Below are positions 313 through 50,719 of a stretch of 64,000 nt of DNA, in pieces (positions within the stretch are counted from its first letter, which is position 1; every line of letters starts with the position of its first letter). Under the pieces are notes generated by a model. That model was not told where the DNA came from and did no database searches. It saw only the letters and a list, made by a program, of their open reading frames with translations. The stretch lies in assembly GCA_010015585.1 (NCBI GenBank), contig ML975190.1. One strand, given 5' to 3'. A program made the position numbers and the translations under genes. The DNA comes from Eremomyces bilateralis CBS 781.70. Lineage: Eukaryota.

Positions 313-650
313 TAGGCTGTAGATGTTATGCTGCATGATAAAACGTTCTTCGAATTCTAGGTCCTTGGCGTTGAGGATGTCCGTAGAGGTTCTTCTCCCA
401 GTCAACATCTTATGTTAACCATGTATTGTCTTCTTCCCTACGAACTCTTCCGAATCTAAGGAGAAATGCTGATTCTAGGGCCGATTCCTGGTCCCGAAAT
501 AGAATAATATTCTCTGGTCGGATGCTCTTCTAGACTATATCGAAGGCATGGACGGAGCAGACGGCTCGTGCTAATTGCGTTGCTAATCGAAATCGATCCG
601 AGAGAGAATGAGTTGACACGGACTAGTCATTGATCGTGGAGAACTGTTTT

Positions 651-3008
651 TCATATGAACCTCTTTTCGAAGCCGATCACCTTCCACTCGCCGGTTTCGG
701 TGTTAAGGGTCAGGTTGGAATGAGTAACCGCGCCATCCTTCAAAAATCCCGACTCAACTCTGCCGTCGGCCAACGGACGGCTTAAGCGGTTAGCGCCCGC
801 CTTGACGGTGAAATTGGCCAACGGAATCTCCCAAGCGTTTCGAGTGGCAACCGATGGGCTTCCATAGAACTTCGCTTGCACCTGCTTGGGCGAGACATGG
901 AGCTCGTAGTATCCGCGATAGTATCCCTCGACCCACTGGAGCTCCGCGTTGTTCGTCCCAAATTCTGTGGCCATGCTTTCGGCACTGGCAATGGTGTCGC
1001 CAAACCCGCCCGGGTTGCTGGTCACCGCTGTCCCGGCGAATTCGACGCCAACTGCCCCCTCTCCTGTGGCTGAGTCATATGGACGCTGCTCAACCCAGGC
1101 GAGGTCGCTGACCTACACGGGGTTAGATCGTGGGCGAAGGAAAGTCAGTGGCATTGACTTACCCAGTTCTTGTGAGAATCGCCTGCCAACATGATATTGT
1201 TCCCAATATTATTGTCATACAAATGCTTGTAAACCCGATCCCGATTGGCAGTGTATCCCTTCGAAGGTCAGCTTCTTCGCGTAGAATAGACCGGGTAAGC
1301 CTACATTCCAGTTGCCTGTAGCGATCGTAGGCTTTCCCTTTACTATGCGTTGGTTTCGAGAGAAAAGGATCTGGTTCCCAATCACTCGCCAGGTTGCTCC
1401 TCGCTTCTGGGACTGAGACAACTGATTATAGAACCAATTCTCTTGACGAGAGCCCATCAACGTGCGTGCGGCATGGCCTTTAAGAAGCTGGATATAATTA
1501 TCATTCCAGCCTAGACTTGTCGTCAGTACTCTATCCGCTAGTATGGCCATTGTCGACGATTGTAAAATTTTGGGGAAACGCACCAAGGTCCACGATGCTG
1601 CGATCGTAATTACGAGTGTCCAGCATAATTAGGTCCAAGGTTTTCCCAAGCTGGAAAGATCTCCAAATACGGAGATTGTCATCCATTTCCACTTGTCTGT
1701 TTGCCGTGTTACTGGATTGTCATGAGAACCTTCTAGTACAAACTTACCGAATGGGCATCCACTCAAAGTACGCTCTTACGGCATTCACCTTGCGCTGGTC
1801 AACGCTGATACCAGGACCGTCATTGAGGAATGACTCTTCTGTGTTGTTGAGCGCAGACATGCCATCCCTGTAGGCGTTGTTTGCAACCTCTACAAAATGT
1901 CAGACTAATCCCAATTGTGATACGATCCTCTTACCATGATCGTCCCACACCGGGATCCAAGCGAACTTTTCGTGGGTGGCCCGAAGATCGAGATCCAAAC
2001 GATGCTAAAAAAATCATGTCAAGTGCCAAACTAACGGTTATCACGAGCTTGGAGACTTACCTGACCAATTCGTGTCCGATAGTCGTACAAGGTGAAGATA
2101 TCGTGTGGCGGATCGGTCGCCCGTTCATCCTTCCCCAACTCACCGCGACCAATTTCATAGATGTAATCTCCGAGATGGACCTGACGCAAACAGGAATCAG
2201 CCATAGAACAGCATCCCTAGAATTCTAGAGCACCTACAACATAGTCGACATTGTCCTTCCTTGCCACGTTGCCGTACGCATTGAAGTATCCATTCGCTGC
2301 GTAAATTAGTCTTGCTCTCCTAACCTCACCAGCTTGGGAAACTTTACAGAAGTTGGCGCATGAAAATACGGCCAGCGAGATGTCTTTGCCATTGTCGTTT
2401 GCGTTCGGGCTCGTCTTTGTTCGACCGAGAGGACTCCGGATATCTGTGCCGCAGACATTGAATTGATACCAATATGTCGAAAATGGTTTTAGATTCTTCG
2501 CTTCAACCTAAAACCAATCAGTCGAAGCATTAGATATAGGAGAAGTGATACTTACTTTAAGTGTAAAGTCAATATCACTAGTCGTATATGCCGTACCCTT
2601 GTCGGCAACCTTTCGAGCTTCCTTATCCGAATACACCTTGTACTCAACGCAGATTGGGTTCTTCGATGCCTTGATATATGTCTCGGTATCATGGCTATAG
2701 TATGGCACATTGCCGGTGACAACCACGTCGCTCGTATCTGATTTCAGGGAGGGGGCAACGCGAGTCCACAGAATAACACTGTTCGGATAAGGATCGCCTG
2801 ACGCCACACCGTGGGTGAAATTTAGCTCTTTAGGATCGTACGCCTTATCATCCCTCTTCACGAATCGCCGCTGAATTTGAGGGATGTCGAGTCCAAGGCC
2901 GGAATGCCTTCGGGACGGGCTGCCATAATTGATATTGGCATCGAGACCCTCCCCTAGCACTTGTGCAACAAGAGCGAGGAGGGGGAAAAGTTCTTTTGCT
3001 GCCCACAT
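651..3008 (-). CDS. secreted PhoD-family alkaline phosphatase (about 10 exons)
   Basis: Signal peptide MWAAKELFPLLALVAQVLG; motifs FTHGVASGDP, VHLGDYIYE, WDDHEVANN, AYFEWMPIR, IMLDTR, LAGDSH. Nine canonical introns join these into one frame ending at the stop at 651. Confidence 0.93.
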
Positions 3009-3299
3009 TGTGAGTGACAATATTGGCTTTGAAGAAAACAGAGCTCACTGGTTCATTCGACAACTTAGATATGGACAATGAAACATTATACCTATTAGTA
3101 TTCCTCGACTTCAGGCATCGGGGTAATTTCTTTCTACTCTCGGATGGTTCTCTAGCGTAGCACATCATAGAGGCAGAATATTTGCCAATCGAACGCATCG
3201 TTTCACACGCGTTGATAAGGGGCTAGGAAATTACTAAATTGCGTGTAGACTTGAAGGAAATCGATTAGTAAAAGTGGTTCTAATAGCAATTTAATACTC

Positions 3300-3660
3300 T
3301 GTAGGTCTAACTAACTATGCAATGATACTGTAGTAGTTTGTCAGCGATCATAGCTTGAACCGACTCGATGTCGTATGGCAGGGAACATGTCAGGTACTCC
3401 AACCGCAGGACCTCATAGCTGCCGCTAGTATCAAATAGAACTAGAATGTACTGTAGATACGGATAGTTATACGGAATCCCCCGCATCAAACGGATATAAT
3501 TAGCCCGACAAACTGTGGAAGCACGAAAAACCTCTTCTACTGGCGGATTCGAAGTCGACGACCTCGTTAGACCTGGACCCAAGTAATATGTCGCCATCGA
3601 TGAGGAAGTTGAGGACACGCCCTAGCACGACTAAATGCCTGCACACGTCCTCTAATCGCA
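3300..3660. pseudogene. degraded, TpA-rich (RIP-like) coding remnant of unknown origin
   Basis: Dense TAG/TAA/TA dinucleotides. The protein-like minus ORF 3307-3618 has no clear start and no recognisable family. Confidence 0.3.
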
Positions 3661-4450
3661 TCGAAAACGGGAAAGCGGGCAGCACTAATGCTATAGTCCA
3701 AATTGCAACATGAATTGAACTTTTGATGGATTATTGTGGTTGAAAAAAATTTGAACTGGACTGGATGAAGTCAGTCGATGAAATATCCCCTTCGCCGTCA
3801 CAGTGCTAATTTCGACATGGGTAAATCAAAGGTCTGACAGGGATATCAACAGATTTTGCAGGGATTTCCCCCCCCGACAATGCACTGCTAATTAGTGCAG
3901 AACCCACCCGTCTGTTCCCCCATAGCAAGCCTTGCGTTGCCTGCAATACAGCGGGTAGAGTATCAACACCGCGGGCTAGGAAACGGAAGGCCCTTAATGA
4001 GCTCTCTTTGAATACGATACGAGGCGTATCGCAAAGTCTGGATGGGCGTAAACAGAGTGCTCCCAAGACTGAATGGGGGTGTAGACGCTGTGAGATCCCA
4101 TTATGCAATACATGGCTATGCTGGTCTGATCATCTGACCGTCGCAGAAGGCGGCTAGGAGCTCTTTTTTTACGCTGAAAATTCCTGCCAGTACCTCTATG
4201 TCTATATATTTTAATTCTTCGATCTGTAGTGCTGGAAACCCTGAAGATTTACGCTGTTTCGTAGGCTTTGTAATTGTTACATTGAAATGGTCAGAATGGC
4301 GATGTTTACAGGGGTTTGCCAAGACAGACCCCTGTTGAAATTAGCACTGCAGTCGCGACGGCCAAGGGGATAAAGCAGATGCCCACGTACTGTCAGGTGC
4401 GGTCACCTTCGTTCGCCGTAGACCCCTGAGGAAGTGAGGTTGCTGTTGAA

Positions 4451-7400
4451 TTACGAAGTAACGTTATGTGCTACCGAACTTGCATCCAAAAACGGCGGTT
4501 TCTGACGCCGTTTTCAGAGGGTTTTCCGCCTAGGCAAAACGCTCCTGTTTCGTTAGGCCTTACACCCACTCACAGTGCCGGGTCCTTGCTCCATGCAGTC
4601 CTCCTCAAACACTTGGGGGTTCAATTTTGGACTTCCAACTCTCGGTTTCCTCGACATTCAGAACTTCCATGCCTCCACGCTAATTTGGAAGCATGATGGT
4701 GTCAAACGCTATGGCTCCGCTGCGAGGTCTCTCTCTGTTTTCTCACATAATAAACAATATCGAAGCCCGTCGCTCGATGAATTGCTCTGTCATTCCCTTT
4801 TCTCTGTTCTCCTCTCTAGCGCTCTCGGCATTTCGCACGTCTAGATCGATCTCTATTATCTAGGAGCATTTGATAAATTCCACTTTACACTCCTATCGAG
4901 ACTGCTCCCTACATTGATCGCTGAGACCATCGTAATGGGAAGGAGGAACAAGTCGCACCGAGGCGCCAAAAAGGATACACTACGAGACGCTGCGTACTAT
5001 GAATCGCTCTATACAGATGACCTAACCCCAGCATTGCGCCCTATCATAGACGCAATAGAAAAAGGAGTCCGCTCTATATGGAGGAAGTGGACAGAGTATG
5101 TATTAATGGCTAAGATTTACCAAGTTCTTAACTAACTGTCCATAACTCTGACTAAATATTGTTCGCTCCAAATCCTTGACCCCGATGCTCTTACCCGCCT
5201 GCAAAATATTAGCGTGGCCGAGATCCGGCGGTTCATGCATTGGTATCTGGACAGTCATGCCGTGACGAAGCTGAGTTCCTTGTATGTGTTGATGCGTTAC
5301 TGGCGGATGATGTATGCTCGGAAGTTGTACCAACGGCTTGACCTTGTCCTCGCTTTGGATATGAAAGATGTAAGGCCGTGGTTCCCTTTCTAGGGACCCT
5401 CTCTTAGTAACGTATGAGCAGTTCATTAGCACCGTCCTCAAAGTCGAGTATAATTTGAGTGAAGATATGAAAGACAAGCCTGTCACGAATGTGGACGATG
5501 TATACTTACTACTGTAGAAGTATGAATACGTGATTGATTTATCTATCTAGGAGTATGGGAGGCCTCGGAGGAATAGGAGGCAACCACACATGATACTAGC
5601 CGTATTGGATGTCACCTGACTCCCAACCTCTAGAGGATTACCTCAGCAAGCTCAGGCTATTTGTGGTCGTGCCTGAGGCAACGAACCGCGCTATACCTAG
5701 TTTGTATGGTCCTAGACCAAATAGCCGGATGGTGTCGCAAGATGCCCCTGTTGGTTTCTACTGCCCTAATTAGATGATAAAAAGTGCAAAGATGGTGTAC
5801 AAATGCCCGGTAAAGGATAAGGGGAAATTGAATTGAGAATTGCAAGAGGATAGAAATAGTGGCTGCTTAAGTACTCCAGGTCCCTGCGGTGCAAGACGCT
5901 CTGGACTCGTTATCCTATCGCCATGGCTCGACTGCTCTTCTACCTGCATGCGCAACCCTCGCATCTACCCCTGATTTTGCCTCGCCGCCCTTGCCGCCAG
6001 TCCACGATTTGCAAGAGGATATGCATTCTGCACCTAAGGCATGAATATACCATCCTGTCCTGGTTAGCGTGCCATTAGTGATATTGTTTGGAGGGTGCGT
6101 CCAAAAATAGTGGAAGATGAAGCGGTAACATTGATTGGTGTTAATGCGGTCTGCTTGATATCTTTCGTTTCCTTCCCCCTTTCAGTCCGCGACCAGTGAC
6201 GGCCAGATATGATATGCGATGACGCTCTCGTCCCTATGCACACGCCAAAGGTTGGAAGAGAAAATTACTCTTCCAAAATTCCATCGTCACTGGATCCGAG
6301 GTCGCACGCAAGCTGCTTGACGCAAAGATAAGGGGCTGCCTCTGCCTATGAGACCGCGTGGTTGCGAGGAGTGTAATGATTGGGTTGGAAGCAATCTCGA
6401 TGGCCGTGCTGGGCCGCCAACCTCGAGCAGCCGCATCGGTCGTCAGTGGACCGTTGTCGTGCGGGCAGATTCAGCTGCTCACGTCCGGATGACCGTGGAA
6501 ATTCTAGTTCGCGAGACCACATGCAATGGCAACCGAGCAATTGGATCCACAGGCTTTCAAGTTCGCATGGATGAATTGGCGTGCTGGCTGGAACAGCCAC
6601 ACCACAAACCCCTCCATTCGTCAAGATGCCTCACCGTCATCGTCAACGTCGGTGTTACCGATGTCACCTGGTTCGGCCTCACCGGATGCTTTGAGCACTG
6701 TCAGGTGGACTGTGACCGAAACTCTTACGTACGAATAGCAGGTTGCAAGCGAGCGACCGTGGCGCCTCTCATACCAAGGTTCCAAGCCAGAGACAGACTG
6801 GGGCATTGACGTCCACATCCAGCTTCCTATTTGATCCCAGAACGCCCATGCCGGTGTCTGTATGAAACCACAGTTGATTCAAATGAGCTGAAGGGATCGG
6901 GCGATCACGATCATCATTATGCCATCATAATCATGCGATGCACGGCGTGGTGTGGCCGAGCACTAAGCTTAGCCGGTTCGAAAATGGGCGTCTCTAGTTA
7001 TAGATAATGCAGTATTATTGCAGACGCTGTCTAAGTCGAAATCGACGAGGGAGGCCGGAAAAGTCGAGGTGCGAAGGTGCACACATGATCCATAAAGTAA
7101 TGAGAAGGAATATGGAGGGCGGTTGGTGACCGTAGTTCATGGCCAATGCTCAGGGTTCTTAGAAAGGGATGGAGAGAAGCGACCACGCTGAGACGAACGG
7201 GGATGGATCCAGCAGTTCAAGCCCATTAAGCTCGAAGTTCGAAATGCTGTGCAACGCAGAAGCGATGGGTCTTAGGAGACGGGGACGCCGAAGAATGAGT
7301 GCTCTCTAGGAGCCTGTTAGTTCTGCTACATTGCGGCGAAGAACTCTGATACACTGGGAAGAAACTCAACATGAAAGGTGGAACTGAAGCTCACCATCCA

Positions 7401-7740
7401 GAAGGCGTTACGAAAGGGGAGCGAGCCGTAAAGCATGGAATGGCAAAAGAGGGGGAGAGATTTCGCCCAAGGCGTAGCGAGGGTCAGCAGGGGATTCAGC
7501 CGTGCAAATGGTGCGTGCAAGGGTCGACCGGTGGACAATGCAAATTTGAGACGCGGCGAAGCAAGAGAAAAAGGGGAAGCCGAAGGGTGGAGGAAGAGGT
7601 GGTTCAGATTTAAGAGGCGATAGACGGTGGTATTTATGTTCTGAGGATTTGAAGGTTTGAAAACGGAAAACAGCGCTATACTTGATAGGGTGGCGCTAAA
7701 CTATAAACGGAAGTTCGGTACCACGCAGATTACGTAGTAA
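4451..7740 (+). mobile_element. miniature/derelict Starship-like tyrosine-recombinase element (about 3.3 kb)
   Basis: Direct repeat TTACGAAGTAA (4451-4461) / TTACGTAGTAA (7730-7740). Inverted arms GTGCTACCGAACTT (4468-4481) and AAGTTCGGTACCAC (7711-7724), 13/14 complementary. A DUF3435 captain fragment is the first gene, about 480 bp inside the left end. Confidence 0.8.
4935..5517 (+). pseudogene. truncated DUF3435 tyrosine recombinase (Starship 'captain'), N-terminal three exons
   Basis: Exons 4935-5095, 5156-5369 and 5422-5517 give MGRRNK..DAAYYESL..IWRKWTE|YC..RRFMHWYLD..KLSSLYVLMRYWRMMYAR..MKD|FISTVLKVEYNLSEDMKDKPVTNVDDVYLLL*. The first acceptor reads TAA instead of TAG, and the catalytic C-terminal part is absent. 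Confidence 0.88.
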
Positions 7741-8085
7741 TTAAGGCGACAGGGTGAATACCTGCAACGCCATGTCAAAGCCGTGGACTAGTGGCGCAGC
7801 ATTGACACGCACGCCGCCCTTTTCGGCTGGGTCGTCCGCCACAACCTGATGCTCCTCCACCAGGGATAGAGAACTAAAGGCAGATACGGCCGTCAATATC
7901 AAATCCGATACAAGCAGATCAAAATTGGTAAACCAGCTATTAATTCCTAAGCAGAAGTTTATTTCTTGCTTGATTGACATGGGAAAGGCCCTCGATTGAT
8001 AACGATGTGAAAGAGCTTGGAAACTAACATCTATCGCCCATAATCAATCACCTGGGCTCTTAAGACGTCCTGAAGCCTCGCAACC

Positions 8086-9843
8086 ATGGGGACTATAGAC
8101 GTCGTCTACATATTCGACGAGCATAACACCCTTCTCCTCTCTCACCACTACCATGGATCCCCTCCATCCGCGAAGGTTCTGTTGAACACCTACCTCTCCC
8201 ACTCCTCACCCCGCCCCTCCGTCCTCTATGTCCCAAGCACCCACCCACCATGCATCCTCTGCTCCATGGTTCAAGACCGTCTCCTATTTCTCACTCCTCT
8301 CTCTCATGATATGGACCCGCTCATAGCGCTCGAGTTCCTTCACCGCGTGGCCGACGCGCTGGAGGAGTTCCTGGGCTCCCCGCTACTAGCTAGTCGGATT
8401 GAGACGCAGTATGATGTCGTCGCGCAGTTGCTGGGTGAGATGTGTGATGCGGGTATAATGAGCGTCACGGAGCCCAACGCGTTACGGGACCTGGTGGATG
8501 TGGGTGTGGGGTTGATGGGCAAATTTCTCGGAGGCGTTGGATTACCTAGGTATATCCCATCATCCCTTGAGCCACAGAACAATTTATCAAAGATGGGATT
8601 ATTGACCCTTTTCGAATTCAGCGCTTCACCATCACTATCATCAGCACCCGGTTCCAGCCTATCCTTCAAACCCCCCGGCTCCGACACCAACCAACTCGCC
8701 ATCCCCTGGCGCCGCGCCAACGTCCGCCACACCAGCAACGAGCTCTACGTTGACATTGTCGAGTCCGTCACCGCTATCCTCGCCCCCTCCGGTCGCCCGC
8801 TCGCCGCCCGCGCCCACGGCACTATAGTCTTCACCGCCAAGGTCTCCGGCGTCCCCGACCTGATCCTGCAGCTCACCACGCCCGGCGGCCGGATGAACGT
8901 CGCGCATACCATGCAGCTCCCGGTGTTCCATCCGTGTGTGCGGCTCGCAAGATGGAAGGAGCATCCCGGGGAGCTAAGCTTCGTACCGCCGGATGGGAGG
9001 TTCGTGTTAGCGGGGTATGAGGTGGATTTGCTTGGAGCGGACTATCTGACGCGGGCGATGCATGATCCGAATTATAGGTCGGACTTGCATTTACCGGTGT
9101 CTATTGAATTGAACAAGTCGCTCGGACCGGACGCGTTGGATTTTGAGGTCAAGATGTCGCTGGACCTGAGCTTCGTGAAGGTCTCGTCCTCGTCGAGTAC
9201 TGGGTTGGGGGCCGGCCTTGGTCGGGCAAAGAGCGCCGGCTTGAGACCGAGTACCGCGACCAGTGGGACGTCTGCACAGCCGACGTTGGAGGAGATCGTT
9301 GTGAGCGTGCCGATTCCGAGTGGGGTGAGGAATTTCAGCGAGATGAAGGCGAGTCGCGGGGAGGCGACGTATGCGCCTGGGGACGGGACGCTGGAGTGGC
9401 GAATATACGGCAAGGAGGCGTCAATGCTGATGAATGGCGTGCATAGTGTCTCCGGTGGCGTGGTTGCGACACTGAGGTGTTCGGTGGTTGGACAGCCTAA
9501 TGTCGGGGAGGTCGAGGAGCCGTTTGCGCCGCCGAAGGAGAAGTGGGACTATGATGAGGGCGGTGATGATGCCTACCAAGCGGAGGCAGGGAGTGGGAAG
9601 AGCACGGGGAAGAAATCACCGAGCGATGAGAAGCTCTCAAGGATAGCCGCGAAGAACGCAGAGCTGATGCCATCGTCGGCATCAGTCAGCTTCCAGGTCA
9701 AGGGATGGTTGCCCAGTGGAATCAAGGTGGAGAAGCTTGCCATCGATATGCCGAAGAGTAAAGGCATAGGCGCTGGCGTACAACCATACAAGGGCGTGAA
9801 GTATCTAGCTGTAAGCAAGGGCGGTGTTGAGATTAGATGTTGA
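8086..9843 (+). CDS. APM3: AP-3 adaptor complex mu subunit
   Basis: Longin N-terminus (LEFLHRVADALEEFLGSPL) and mu-homology domain (IPWRRANVRHTSNELYVDIVE, FHPCVRL, LSFVPPDGRFVLAGY, PYKGVKY). Probable in-frame intron 8550-8621. Confidence 0.93.
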   Translation: MGTIDVVYIFDEHNTLLLSHHYHGSPPSAKVLLNTYLSHSSPRPSVLYVPSTHPPCILCSMVQDRLLFLTPLSHDMDPLIALEFLHRVADALEEFLGSPLLASRIETQYDVVAQLLGEMCDAGIMSVTEPNALRDLVDVGVGLMGKFLGGVGLPRYIPSSLEPQNNLSKMGLLTLFEFSASPSLSSAPGSSLSFKPPGSDTNQLAIPWRRANVRHTSNELYVDIVESVTAILAPSGRPLAARAHGTIVFTAKVSGVPDLILQLTTPGGRMNVAHTMQLPVFHPCVRLARWKEHPGELSFVPPDGRFVLAGYEVDLLGADYLTRAMHDPNYRSDLHLPVSIELNKSLGPDALDFEVKMSLDLSFVKVSSSSSTGLGAGLGRAKSAGLRPSTATSGTSAQPTLEEIVVSVPIPSGVRNFSEMKASRGEATYAPGDGTLEWRIYGKEASMLMNGVHSVSGGVVATLRCSVVGQPNVGEVEEPFAPPKEKWDYDEGGDDAYQAEAGSGKSTGKKSPSDEKLSRIAAKNAELMPSSASVSFQVKGWLPSGIKVEKLAIDMPKSKGIGAGVQPYKGVKYLAVSKGGVEIRC

Positions 9844-37976: not shown

Positions 37977-40900
37977 TTAAGCATGTGAATTGTGCGTGTC
38001 GATGAAACTCCGCGCCGTCGCCGGATCCCGGAACATGAAACTAACCCTCTTCAACGTGCGCGGCTGCTTCGGATCAGGAATGCTACCGATCGCTGTCTTC
38101 GTCCCACTAAGCGCGAACTTTAACCCGACAGTGACGCGCGAGTTGAGCACCACCCGCCCGCCAGGAACAGTCTTCATGAGCATCTGCACAACGTTCGTGT
38201 CGGGGTTTTTAAGCAGCAGCATCGCGCCGCTGCCCTCGTCGACCCATTCCTTGGTCTTGGGGTCTAGGCCCTTCATCTTCGCGCGGTCGGCTTCGAAGAG
38301 TAGGTCGTGCCCGGCTTTGTCTTGTTCGAGGCCAGAGAGGTCGGTTTGCGCGTCCTTGGGCGCTTCGTCGTCGCCGTCGGGCTTGGTTGCGTCGGAGAGG
38401 CCGCCGTCGGTGGAAACGCCGGGGGTGGTGGCGCGGGAGGTGAGGCCGGATGGTGTGCCAGTCGGGGGAGCAAGAAATCCAAATGTGGATGGTCCGGATG
38501 TTTGCTGAGGAAATACATTGGATGACGGGGTCTGGTTCGACCCAAGCGCGGACGGAGTGGTTGCTTGAGCGCCGAATGCGCTGGGTGGGGTTTGGGCAAA
38601 TCCAAATGTGGATTGACTGGATGGTGGAGCGCCGAAGGCGGTGGATGGTGTCTGATTAAAGCCAAAGCTCAATGGTTTCACATTCTGCGCTGGAGTGGAT
38701 GCACCTTTCGCTGGAGAACCAGGCGGAGTAGTCGACGTCGACTCAGCAACGCTACCCTTGAATGCAGGTGGCCCACTCATCCCCCCAAATGAGGATGACC
38801 CAAATGCGGAAGCGCTGGTAGTAGTAGCAGGCTGGACAGCAGCAGAAGCCGCATCGCCAGCTCCGCCTTTGCCTTTGTCAGCATTGGCTCCGGCAGCCAT
38901 GCCAAATGGAGCGGCAGTGCCGGTGCTGCGCCCAAACAGACTCTGCTGTGAAGAGCCTTGCATGGTACCGAATTTGATGGGCGAGTTCACCTTCCATGTA
39001 TGATCGCCAGGTCCCATCGCTTCAGCAGTCTTTGCCGCGGGAGGAGATGAGCCGAAGTGCGAGAATAGTGAACTCTTCTCGCCGGTAGCTGCAGCAGTAG
39101 CTGCCGCAGGCTTCGCCGGGGTACCGAACATCGAGAGAGATGATGGTGTTTGAGCATTGTCAGGAACGCTCGAAAGCGGCGAGGATGTTGCTGGATTTGG
39201 AGTCCATGTCGACTTCGGCTGAGTGCCATCCGCCTTCTTCCCGGCGTCATCATATGAGACCCGATCGAAGAGGCTGCGCCCCGATGATGGAGCTTCCCTG
39301 GCTTCAGTACCAAGAGTCTGCACCGGCGCCGTCTTCGCATGTTGCGTGCTCTCACCGAGCTCTTTCCACGCCTCCGCCACCGCAGGCGACTGGCTCCTAA
39401 GTTCATCGCCTGGAATGACCAGGGCATCAGGAGAAGTGTTGTTCGTTCCGTCACCGTCATGCTCTTCGTCGGACGCCGAGTCGTCATCCTTGCTTGCGTC
39501 GGCGCCGGAGTCGACATCGGAGAGGTGCCCGAAAATGTTATCACCGCTCTTCGCCGCTTGCAGGCTCGGGTCGTCGAGGACGGATGCACGGCCGCTGGTG
39601 GAAGGAGTGGGGGTCCGGGATGGGGTGAAGGTACCCGCCGCACTGTCCTGCTTGCCAGAGAACGCGAAGAGAGATTGCGAGGTGCTCTGAGTCTTCGCGG
39701 ATGCTTCGGATGTGGCATCGCCTTTCGTCTTCTTCGACTGCGGCTCGTCTTCATCGGAGGTAGGTTCATTCTCTTGGTATTCGTCAGACGTTCGCTTTCC
39801 CTTCTTCTCTTGAGAGGGTTTTGCGGCACCAAGGAAGGAGAAGCTCGGTGGCTGCGAAGCTGTTCCAGCTGCGGTTCCTGGCGCACGAGAGAAAAGAGAA
39901 CTGCTTGGTCCAGCAGATGCGGGTTGGAACGACGGTGATGAAGCAGGCTGAGATTGGAACAAGCTACTCTTCGGCGCAGCCTTTGCCGGTTCAGTCGCCG
40001 GTGCATTGACTCGAGCGTTCTGACGGTTTTTCGCCGACGTGACGGCAGGCTGTGGCGTGCTGAAAGAAACACCGCCGGGACCGTTGCTCTCGGCAGCCGG
40101 GCTGTCAACAATATTTTTGAAAAGTGCGGATGTCGTTGACGCGCTTGGAGAAAACTCCAGAGCTTCGCTTGGAGTCTCCGTCATTTGTTTTCCTCGCTTC
40201 GAAGAAGGCTCCGGTTCTTGATCCTCGCTAGATCCCCGCTTCGAGCCCGTGGCCGGTCCACCGAGCATGCCGCGCACCTTGGTCGATGGGAGCGGTTTGG
40301 AGGAGGCAGTAGGATCGCGCCCAGCAGCATTCAACGCGGACCGTCGAGAGAGCTTCTTCTCCTTCATGTCACCGGTGATTTTGGACATGACGCGAACATA
40401 TGCGACCATCGCTTTGGTCCAGTCTTGGTCCAAGTCCATCTTCTTGAGACGAGCAAGGAATGCTTTGTTGAGCTTCGTGGTGAGTGACTTCCTCTTCTCT
40501 TCGTCGGTCTGGGGGACCTGTTTAGGCTTCCCGGGAGTGAGAGTGGGCCGAGCGGGTGTTTGTTGTTGTTGTGGCATGAGCTGCTGTTGAGCTTCGGATG
40601 TCGCAACAGGTGGGGAGGGAACGGTGTCTCGCTGAGACGGAGTGAATGTCGCGGATGGCTGTGCATCTTCACTCGTGATTGCAGCAGTGTTAGGACTAGA
40701 CTGTGCTGACTGAGATGCAGCGAAGATGTTCCCAGTACTACCCGCGGGTTTAGGCGTGGTTTCTGGCTGTGCCGTAACTGGAGCACCGAAAATGTTGCTG
40801 GGTTGATTGGTCGCGGACTTGAGAGTCTCAGCGCTTGGAGTTGCTTTCTGCGATGCGGAAGCAAACATATTGTTCGAAGCAGTTCCGCCGATGGCGGAAT

Positions 40901-49838: not shown

Positions 49839-50719
49839 AAAAGGGAATTGACTTTGATGATGGATATGAAGTCATGGACTTGGGGACACGATTCTCGATG
49901 TTGGGACACCGCTTAGGTCTCCACGGAAAACAACATTCTCTACAGACAGAACGAGGCTCACTTGTTCATCAGCCTGGAGTCTTTTGTATAATTATTAAGC
50001 ATTCCATTTTACAATGAGACACTCTGGTCGGCCCCTTTGGTAGATTGACTGCTTAATCAGATATTCCTCCCCCCTTCCTGCAAAAGCTCTCTAATTCAAA
50101 CAATGGGCCATCTGCAAGTAAATACTCCGTAGACCGCACCCCTCACCAGATGACCACTCTCCCAACGCTCCCTTCGCCTCTTCCACGCGCTTAGCCGCGC
50201 TAGCCCAACCGTTCCACAGCAACCGCCCTTCTGTATCTGCATGCCACCACATCCACGGCAACACTGCAAGGATCCGCCCCAACAATGCCCCTTGTATGCA
50301 GTCTCGTGTTCCGGTCCCCCGGCGGCACCGCATATCTCGCGTGGAGAGCAACCATGCCGCTGCAGGAAACAAGATATCGCCGTGCAACGCGACACGGATG
50401 AACAATTGTGGTCTGACTCCTCGCCCGTGGAGGTCAGCAGTGTGCCATACGCTTCGACTGACATGTCACTTCCGCTGCGCAGTGCCGGGGCCGCACCCGT
50501 GAGCAGGTGATGAGGGTGGCGTCGTACGGGGTGGAATGACGAGAGTGTGAGTGGGGATGGGGAATTTCCCGATATGCCGCATTGATGGGAGATATTTTGA
50601 GAGCGTTGAGGTCGTTGCCCCTTGCGACGATTGGCGACAATATTCCCTGCCGCGTGCGCATGGATATCGGGAGTTGGAGATGGACGGGACAGGTAATTTG
50701 GCAGAACTCGTAGCGTTTT

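Follow-up and report, generated by a model that had tools for sequence, protein, structure and literature searches.

The locus and its truncated captain gene

Positions 4451-7740 of a 64-kb stretch of contig ML975190.1 of Eremomyces bilateralis CBS 781.70 (64,000 nucleotides, hereafter the window) hold a candidate 3,290-bp element, in which the start of a Starship captain, the gene for a DUF3435-type tyrosine recombinase, faces inward at the 5′ end and a direct repeat with an inverted repeat just inside it is found at each boundary. A preliminary description had proposed that this is an internally deleted, non-autonomous Starship derivative that keeps both of its ends, and all of the boundary and subterminal motifs on which it drew were found where it had placed them. 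We examined the captain gene, the two ends and the interior, and argue below that the element is probably a cargo-less derivative of a Starship of the Tardis family. Coordinates of the features are collected in Table 1.

Table 1. Features of the candidate element, by position in the window.
Feature	Sequence	Position	Strand	Remarks
Left direct repeat, putative recombination core	TTACGAAGTAA	4451-4461	+	Contig joint at 4452; unique contig ends at 4486
Left arm of terminal inverted repeat	GTGCTACCGAACTT	4468-4481	+	13/14 complementary to 7711-7724
Subterminal palindrome	AAAACGGCG-N8-CGCCGTTTT	4489-4514		Perfect 9-bp stem; just inside left inverted repeat
Subterminal pair of the preliminary description	CCGTTTTCA; TGAAAACGG	4508-4516; 7659-7667		
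Subterminal conserved motif	TTTCAGAGGGTTTTC	4511-4525	+	Overlaps CCGTTTTCA
Captain stump, exon 1	MGRRNKSHRG... (product)	4935-5095	+	
Intron 1 remnant		5096-5155	+	GTATGT donor; CTAAC branch-like site; AA end instead of AG
Captain stump, exon 2		5156-5369	+	92% identical to P0023 over 71 aa
Intron 2		5370-5421	+	Canonical GT..AG
Captain stump, exon 3		5422-5514; stop TAG 5515-5517	+	25/31 identical to P0024
Fragment of a different, very abundant repeat		5513-5765		Starts at captain breakpoint
Non-coding interior		5766-7656		1.9 kb; depth 3 to 8.5x flank
Terminal right 83 bp		7657-7739	+	Kept in related species (X3)
Right arm of terminal inverted repeat	AAGTTCGGTACCAC (minus strand: GTGGTACCGAACTT)	7711-7724	-	
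Spacer	GCAGA	7725-7729	+	With C at 7724 gives TCTGCG inward from right repeat
Right direct repeat, putative recombination core	TTACGTAGTAA	7730-7740	+	Unique contig of right flank starts at 7691

The captain fragment starts with an ATG at 4935, which is 484 bp from the left repeat and agrees with the distance of about 480 bp given earlier. When compared by tblastn with P0023, 130/145 residues (90%) were identical over 4935-5369 and the two matched again over exon 3, and identity to a second relative, P0024, was 66-81%. Both relatives (670 and 655 aa, respectively) are full-length, are named hypothetical proteins of Eremomyces bilateralis CBS 781.70 and carry PF11917 (DUF3435), which occupies residues 169-604 of P0023. 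Likeness to P0023 breaks off precisely after ..NVDDVYLLL (5514), which corresponds to its residue 176 and leaves the stump 8 residues of the DUF3435 domain. The remainder of the captain, including the catalytic domain, has no tblastn match in the window, in keeping with the earlier claim that the gene stops at this peptide without its catalytic domain. The fragment itself had no match in Pfam, DUF3435 included, because the break falls at residue 176 while PF11917 begins at 169 in P0023; the proposed check against the DUF3435 profile was therefore positive for the full-length relatives but not for the stump. A search with exon 2 returned 22 matches, among which P0015 and P0017 carry PF11917 just downstream of the matched region; P0001, P0010 and P0018, which are tandem-repeat proteins, were dropped as spurious. 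The many short exon 2 matches are best explained as gene-model fragments that read into intron 2, and do not speak for stumps elsewhere.

The spliced gene had been placed at 4935-5517, and this extent was confirmed, with three exons, but the first intron ends in AA and not in AG. If that intron is retained, an in-frame TAA is encountered at 5133-5135. The homologous intron is spliced out in the gene model of P0024 and read through in that of P0023. Given the AA end and the TAA upon retention, the sequence suggests that this captain copy is probably dead even as a short protein.

Assignment to a family was possible through the two full-length relatives. The supplement of the starfish study lists erebil1_192051 and erebil1_475428 as Starship tyr genes of fam03, together with two further fam03 genes in that genome (PMC11162782), and these identifiers contain the numbers found within the source names of P0023 and P0024. 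Family 3 is Tardis according to Table 1 of the same study (PMC11162782). Since near-identical full-length relatives carry PF11917 and are classed as fam03, the stump appears to be the start of a Starship captain of the Tardis family, in agreement with the DUF3435-type captain fragment first described; its place among the family 3 recombinases is indirect, being judged by the classification of P0023 and P0024.

Truncated captains were also seen in metagenome contigs. In L004 (1-1357) and L005 (257-1591), which come from different samples, a related captain is cut at the same codon (about residue 109), beyond which both continue into the same unrelated sequence of 1.2 kb. The two are 92.6% identical overall, and over its first 120 bases L004 is 100% identical to an intact copy, L002. 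A common truncation, a site-specific insertion or assembly chimerism could explain this likeness.

Candidate paired ends and the edges of repeated sequence

The left end of the candidate element reads TTACGAAGTAA-N6-GTGCTACCGAACTT (4451-4481) and the right end AAGTTCGGTACCAC-N5-TTACGTAGTAA (7711-7740), such that the outer 11-mers, which agree at 10/11 positions, form a direct repeat at both boundaries. A 14-nt inverted repeat is unremarkable on its own in 3.6 kb, where two longer chance pairs (I1 and I2) were found. The string GTGSTACCGAACTT occurs exactly at only the two end sites in 64 kb, with about 0.52 matches expected at up to 2 mismatches, and TACGNAGTA occurs three times in the window against 0.60 expected, two of the three being at the element ends. 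An end-to-end alignment of 33 nt (25/33) was the top non-self match among 2130 window chunks, with a score of 25 and a next-best score of 22. It is the combination of the mirrored layout, the position at the edges of a repeated stretch and the fit to the published repeat of the family that places these ends above chance. Partial matches to the terminal inverted repeat (TIR) at 38962 and 39118 were rejected as chance, as they have 2 mismatches, lie in what is apparently coding sequence and have no adjoining repeat core.

The fit to the family can be judged from Tardis h1 of Aspergillus fumigatus, which is about 82 kb long with a predicted target of TACGGAGTAG (PMC12153272). Its direct repeat (DR) is described as "highly conserved 9-11 bp" and listed as (a)(c)tacggagta(a), with the core TACGGAGTA (PMC12153272, Tables 1, S3/S4), and its TIR is listed as (ag)tctgcggtgacggcg (PMC12153272, Table S3/S4). 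Both window cores (left: TACGAAGTA) match TACGGAGTA at 8/9 positions, and the match scores 13 in the orientation of the captain, compared to 7 (left) and 12 (right) when reversed. The TTAC that had been linked to Starships in general is the core of Hephaestus, whose target is TTAC(N7)A (PMC10104507), and is here better read as part of this Tardis repeat. Inward from the right repeat, the window continues with TCTGCG, the hexamer with which the Tardis h1 TIR tctgcggtgacggcg begins, so that the right ends can be written in one register as ..GCAGA-TTACGTAGTA (window) and ..GCAGA-CTACGGAGTA (Tardis). We infer this register, in which the reverse-complemented TIR would abut the repeat at the Tardis right end, because a shorter DR in the rows of Table S3 is offset by a longer TIR. 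No likeness to the Tardis TIR was detected at the left end. Upstream of a full-length captain, this end occurs as well: residues 5-25 of P0024 align to 4445-4516, the gene model having translated this sequence as ..VRSNVECYRK..FLTPFS.

The 15-nt motif at 4511-4525 is present in the metagenome contigs L005 (15/15) and L002 (14/15), in the same orientation and upstream of the captain start. The palindrome at 4489-4514 is absent from both of these relatives, and its sequence is possibly specific to a subfamily; AAAACGG, a motif of this palindrome, recurs near the right end (7661-7667). A right end was not detectable in five metagenome loci, in which scores were below those of shuffled controls. 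Further copies of the left region, seen in source-organism contigs, miss parts of 4510-4990, with joints that skip 141 to 437 bases, and in L002, L005 and the P0024 gene model no more than tens of bases separate the captain start from the subterminal motif. These observations together suggest that about 400 bp within 4510-4990 are variable or inserted.

The bases flanking the 11-mers (4449-4452 and 7739-7742) extend them to AATTAC...GTAATT. An empty site reconstructed through one 11-mer would read AATTAC-GNA-GTAATT, with perfect 6-bp inverted arms and a 3-bp spacer, a geometry that would suit the core site of a recombinase. The 10-bp Tardis consensus CTACGGAGTA occurs without mismatch at 50122-50131 on the minus strand, with no inverted repeat or captain adjoining. 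It may be an unoccupied target site or a chance occurrence, as 0.6 TACGNAGTA sites are expected per window.

We also assessed where repeated sequence begins and ends by comparing contigs over 2500-9500, using 31-letter words, in runs X1 and X2 (source organism, one sample) and X3 (another organism). The element is located between a PhoD-like phosphatase gene (minus strand, to ~3222) and the gene for an adaptor-complex AP mu-subunit (from ~8074). Depth was ~208-267 in the flanks compared to 640-3280 across 4372-7881, these being sums over contigs that, according to the tool's own warning, are not equal to copy numbers. In the source organism, 4452-7739 is repeated sequence between single-copy flanks. 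The unique contig on the left ends at 4486 and that on the right begins at 7691, which, with words of 31 letters, fits repeat edges near 4452 and 7740, and positions 4452 and 5805, on opposite strands, are joined in one contig. Within the element, terminal sequence is deeper than captain sequence in these contigs, and left-end sequence is deeper than right-end sequence.

In X3, the four listed contig pieces match only the last 60-87 bases of the element (~7653-7739) at roughly 82%, and 3/4 of them end at 7738 or 7739. Two contigs of this organism continue past 7739 with flanks that are unlike each other (agreement 0.65). Its AP mu gene is about 84% identical, with a match that starts at 8080. 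Coverage by X3 is lacking over 2500-4371 and from the element to the AP mu gene, so that it speaks neither for nor against an empty site. A joint from 6003 to 7661 in X3 was given no weight, as it has only 21 letters on one side. The PhoD-like gene (2550-3197) has a second copy elsewhere in the source organism, which is ~85% identical (95 differences in 648 bases).

Interior, alternative explanations and proposed history

At the point where the captain breaks off, the sequence passes into a repeat of a different kind. The bin 5542-5775 has a depth of 28750, about a hundred times that of the flank (~208); five contigs begin to match at 5513 and differ before that position, and nine contigs diverge behind 5765 into a shared continuation (agreement 0.78). 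The divergence of contigs at 5513 and 5765, together with this depth, indicates that a fragment of an abundant, unrelated repeat sits exactly at the captain break. No tRNA and no Rfam match were found in the fragment, which has internal boundaries at 5607, 5699 and 5733. The non-coding part that follows (5766-7656) is apparently a mosaic of repeat pieces, and a 5.1-kb contig shares only 5975-6432 with it. None of the 25 open reading frames scanned against Pfam (23 from the interior and 2 from the left part) gave a match above the cut-off, the interior reading frames of 162 and 124 aa have no homologues, and no Rfam family or tRNA was detected in the interior.

We consider 4451-7740 to be best explained as what internal deletion has left of a Tardis-family (family 3) Starship, with no cargo, a dead captain and both ends kept, and we assign this reading a probability of roughly 70%. 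It draws on the captain start, whose family is given by near-identical relatives, on the oriented family repeat core at both ends, on the edges of repeated sequence that coincide with them, on the left end found upstream of the captain in P0024 and on the truncation of the captain at a foreign repeat; in this respect the internally deleted, non-autonomous derivative with two ends that had been proposed holds up well. Several observations weigh against it. The patchwork of the interior leaves doubt that 5766-7656 is the native 3′ region of the parent, and no second copy of the 3.3-kb unit, or of any part of it, is present within the 64-kb window. The two 11-mers differ at their central base (A vs T). 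Beyond the hexamer, the likeness to the Tardis TIR (AG)TCTGCGGTGACGGCG is at chance level, as 12.7% of 6396 window chunks score equally, and the register at the Tardis right end comes from the trade-off between DR and TIR lengths mentioned above. The excess depth must be read with the same caution, as it does not count copies. Finally, the element may be no more than wreckage, without any history of movement.

One alternative is that the two ends stem from different insertions of same-family Starships at or near one site, which were later joined by a deletion, so that 4451-7740 was never a single element. A repeat mosaic with a captain that breaks at a foreign repeat, a left end deeper than the right end and a different central base in each 11-mer would all be in keeping with such a scenario. 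However, the ends are correctly oriented to each other, with the repeat in captain orientation on both sides, the 13/14 inverted repeat lies at near-equal spacing from it (6 and 5 bp), and single-copy housekeeping DNA is found on both flanks. We therefore regard two joined insertions as improbable. We give slightly less credit to the idea that the parent family consists of small, multi-copy DUF3435 elements, only a few kb in size and with no gene but the captain, of which the window would hold an ordinary decayed copy. The relatives belong to family 3, whose type element measures about 82 kb, and fam03 accounts for only 4 of the 11 erebil1 rows examined in Table S4 of the starfish study, which argues that the family itself is not highly multi-copy. 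On the other side, parts of the stretch are at 3-15x the flank depth, and for the species with P0023 the supplement contains 19 tyr rows (tyrCount 15), while Starships are usually low-copy (PMC11162782). The same species has an elementCount of 0 in Table S8 (PMC11162782), i.e., it is without a delimited Starship, and its full-length relatives of the stump might thus be small, which also counts against our preferred reading; small forms would have been missed in any case, since that study dropped everything below 15 kb.

It might also be argued that the right motif pair is a chance resemblance and 7740 no element end, leaving only the left end and the stump as real, given that comparable inverted repeats (I1 and I2) arise by chance in 3.6 kb and that the end alignment scores 25 against a background maximum of 22. 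Yet the right motif lies exactly where the repeated sequence stops and the X3 contig pieces end, it consists of the family repeat core followed by TCTGCG, and TACGNAGTA is expected only 0.6 times per window, making this explanation very improbable.

If the element is a deletion derivative of a Tardis-family Starship, its history may be envisaged as follows. The full element would have entered a site of the TACGNAGTA type, with the PhoD phosphatase gene on one side and the AP mu-subunit gene on the other, after which a high-copy repeat may have inserted into the captain gene, and one or more deletions would have removed the rest of the captain and the cargo, either at the present locus or before arrival there. 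The stretch 5766-7656 would then derive from the parent. What is left at each end would be the family's 11-bp direct repeat TTACG[A/T]AGTAA as the presumed recombination core, with a 14-bp inverted repeat 5-6 bp inside, while the left end would also keep the subterminal conserved motif and the promoter region of the captain. Such an element would be immobile alone, but would offer both cis ends to the cognate tyrosine recombinase of full-length relatives, which could in principle release it in circular form and insert it again at similar sites, by analogy with the engineered Hephaestus.

Whether the element is a natural mini-Starship that was moved, or is still movable, in trans by the full-length Tardis-family captains of the same genome is a separate matter, and we think it unlikely; the interpretation in the preliminary description is, taken as a whole, partly supported. 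Were trans-mobilization to occur, the cis requirement would be less than 0.5 kb at the left end plus at most ~2 kb at the right end, possibly the terminal 83 bp only, and the greater depth of terminal than of captain sequence would suggest that captain-less derivatives and solo ends exist as a hidden population. The Tardis repeat motif is over-represented in A. fumigatus, for which the report gives no explanation (PMC12153272), and a captain-less population of this kind could contribute to the over-representation.

Full-text searches of the literature, most subscription journals excepted, turned up no report of a natural mini, non-autonomous or captain-less Starship. Degraded or fragmented Starships and an engineered minimal element are already known, and the new aspect suggested by this sequence is a natural, two-ended form of 3.3 kb. 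Starships have been catalogued only above 15 kb and with a known empty site (PMC11162782), and because of this size floor and the demand for an empty site, small two-ended derivatives would be invisible to the current pipeline. The role of Starship ends is stated to be undemonstrated (PMC11162782), and with a natural element of 3.3 kb there is now a concrete candidate for what a Tardis-family element minimally needs in cis. Its end sequences also allow the boundaries of full-length relatives to be sought in a species without a delimited Starship. Movement in trans, if it occurs, would make it the first element in nature to parallel the engineered mini-Hephaestus and would mean that Starships spawn parasitic short forms, as other DNA transposons do. 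Even as plain wreckage, it would neatly illustrate the decay of a giant element.

Comparison with known systems

Starship captains are located within about 2 kb of the element boundary (PMC11162782), and the captain stump faces inward from the 5′ end at 484 bp. An intact recombinase domain and cargo are lacking, and the length of 3,290 bp is below the 15 kb that served as the floor of the starfish study (PMC11162782), where it was applied as a filter. Tardis h1 and the window element share the captain family (via the fam03 relatives), a 9-11 bp repeat core of the form TACG-N-AGTA in the same orientation to the captain, TCTGCG adjoining the right repeat and an inward captain close to the 5′ boundary. 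They differ in length (about 82 kb vs 3.29 kb) and in cargo, of which there is none here, as well as in the captain, which in the window is cut at about residue 176 and splice-defective. Tardis h1 has G as the central base of its repeat, where A or T is found here, the remainder of the TIR is not demonstrably alike, and the window's host belongs to a genus other than Aspergillus.

Cryptons are likewise small tyrosine-recombinase elements with short direct repeats that reflect the target (PMC13465315). However, they are without TIRs, have repeats of 4-6 bp and, in the case of CryptonA, recombinases with DUF3504 (PMC13465315), whereas the window element has a TIR, an 11-bp repeat and relatives that carry DUF3435 (PF11917), and so does not conform to the description of a Crypton. 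Miniature inverted-repeat transposable elements (MITEs) and other deletion derivatives of TIR transposons resemble it in their internal deletion, their conserved ends and their use of an enzyme in trans. MITEs are defined by many copies of one short form, whereas the window holds a single copy of the unit described here and the contigs show parts of it, but not the unit, to be repeated, so that the MITE-like aspect of the preliminary description is not supported. MITEs also depend on a DDE transposase that makes target-site duplications, in contrast to a tyrosine recombinase acting on a core site.

Within the Starships themselves, derelict or fragmented elements have also lost function through mutation, nested transposons and deletion (PMC11162782, PMC12153272). 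Those described in these reports are large remnants or fragments without defined paired ends, whereas the window element keeps both ends around 3.3 kb. The closest parallel in design is miniHephaestus, which was engineered from a 5′ flank of 3,820 bp, a 3′ flank of 1,902 bp, hhpA and zrcA, and which transposes (Urquhart et al. 2023, PMC10104507). For Hephaestus, movement via a circular intermediate has been described in a preprint (10.64898/2026.09.21.753150). miniHephaestus was built in the laboratory and belongs to the Hephaestus family, while the window element is natural, smaller and without a working captain, and its mobility is only proposed. Both are small and keep both flanks, and since a frameshifted captain in the mini construct was complemented by the wild-type captain (PMC10104507), rescue in trans, the behavior proposed for the window element, has a precedent in the engineered one.

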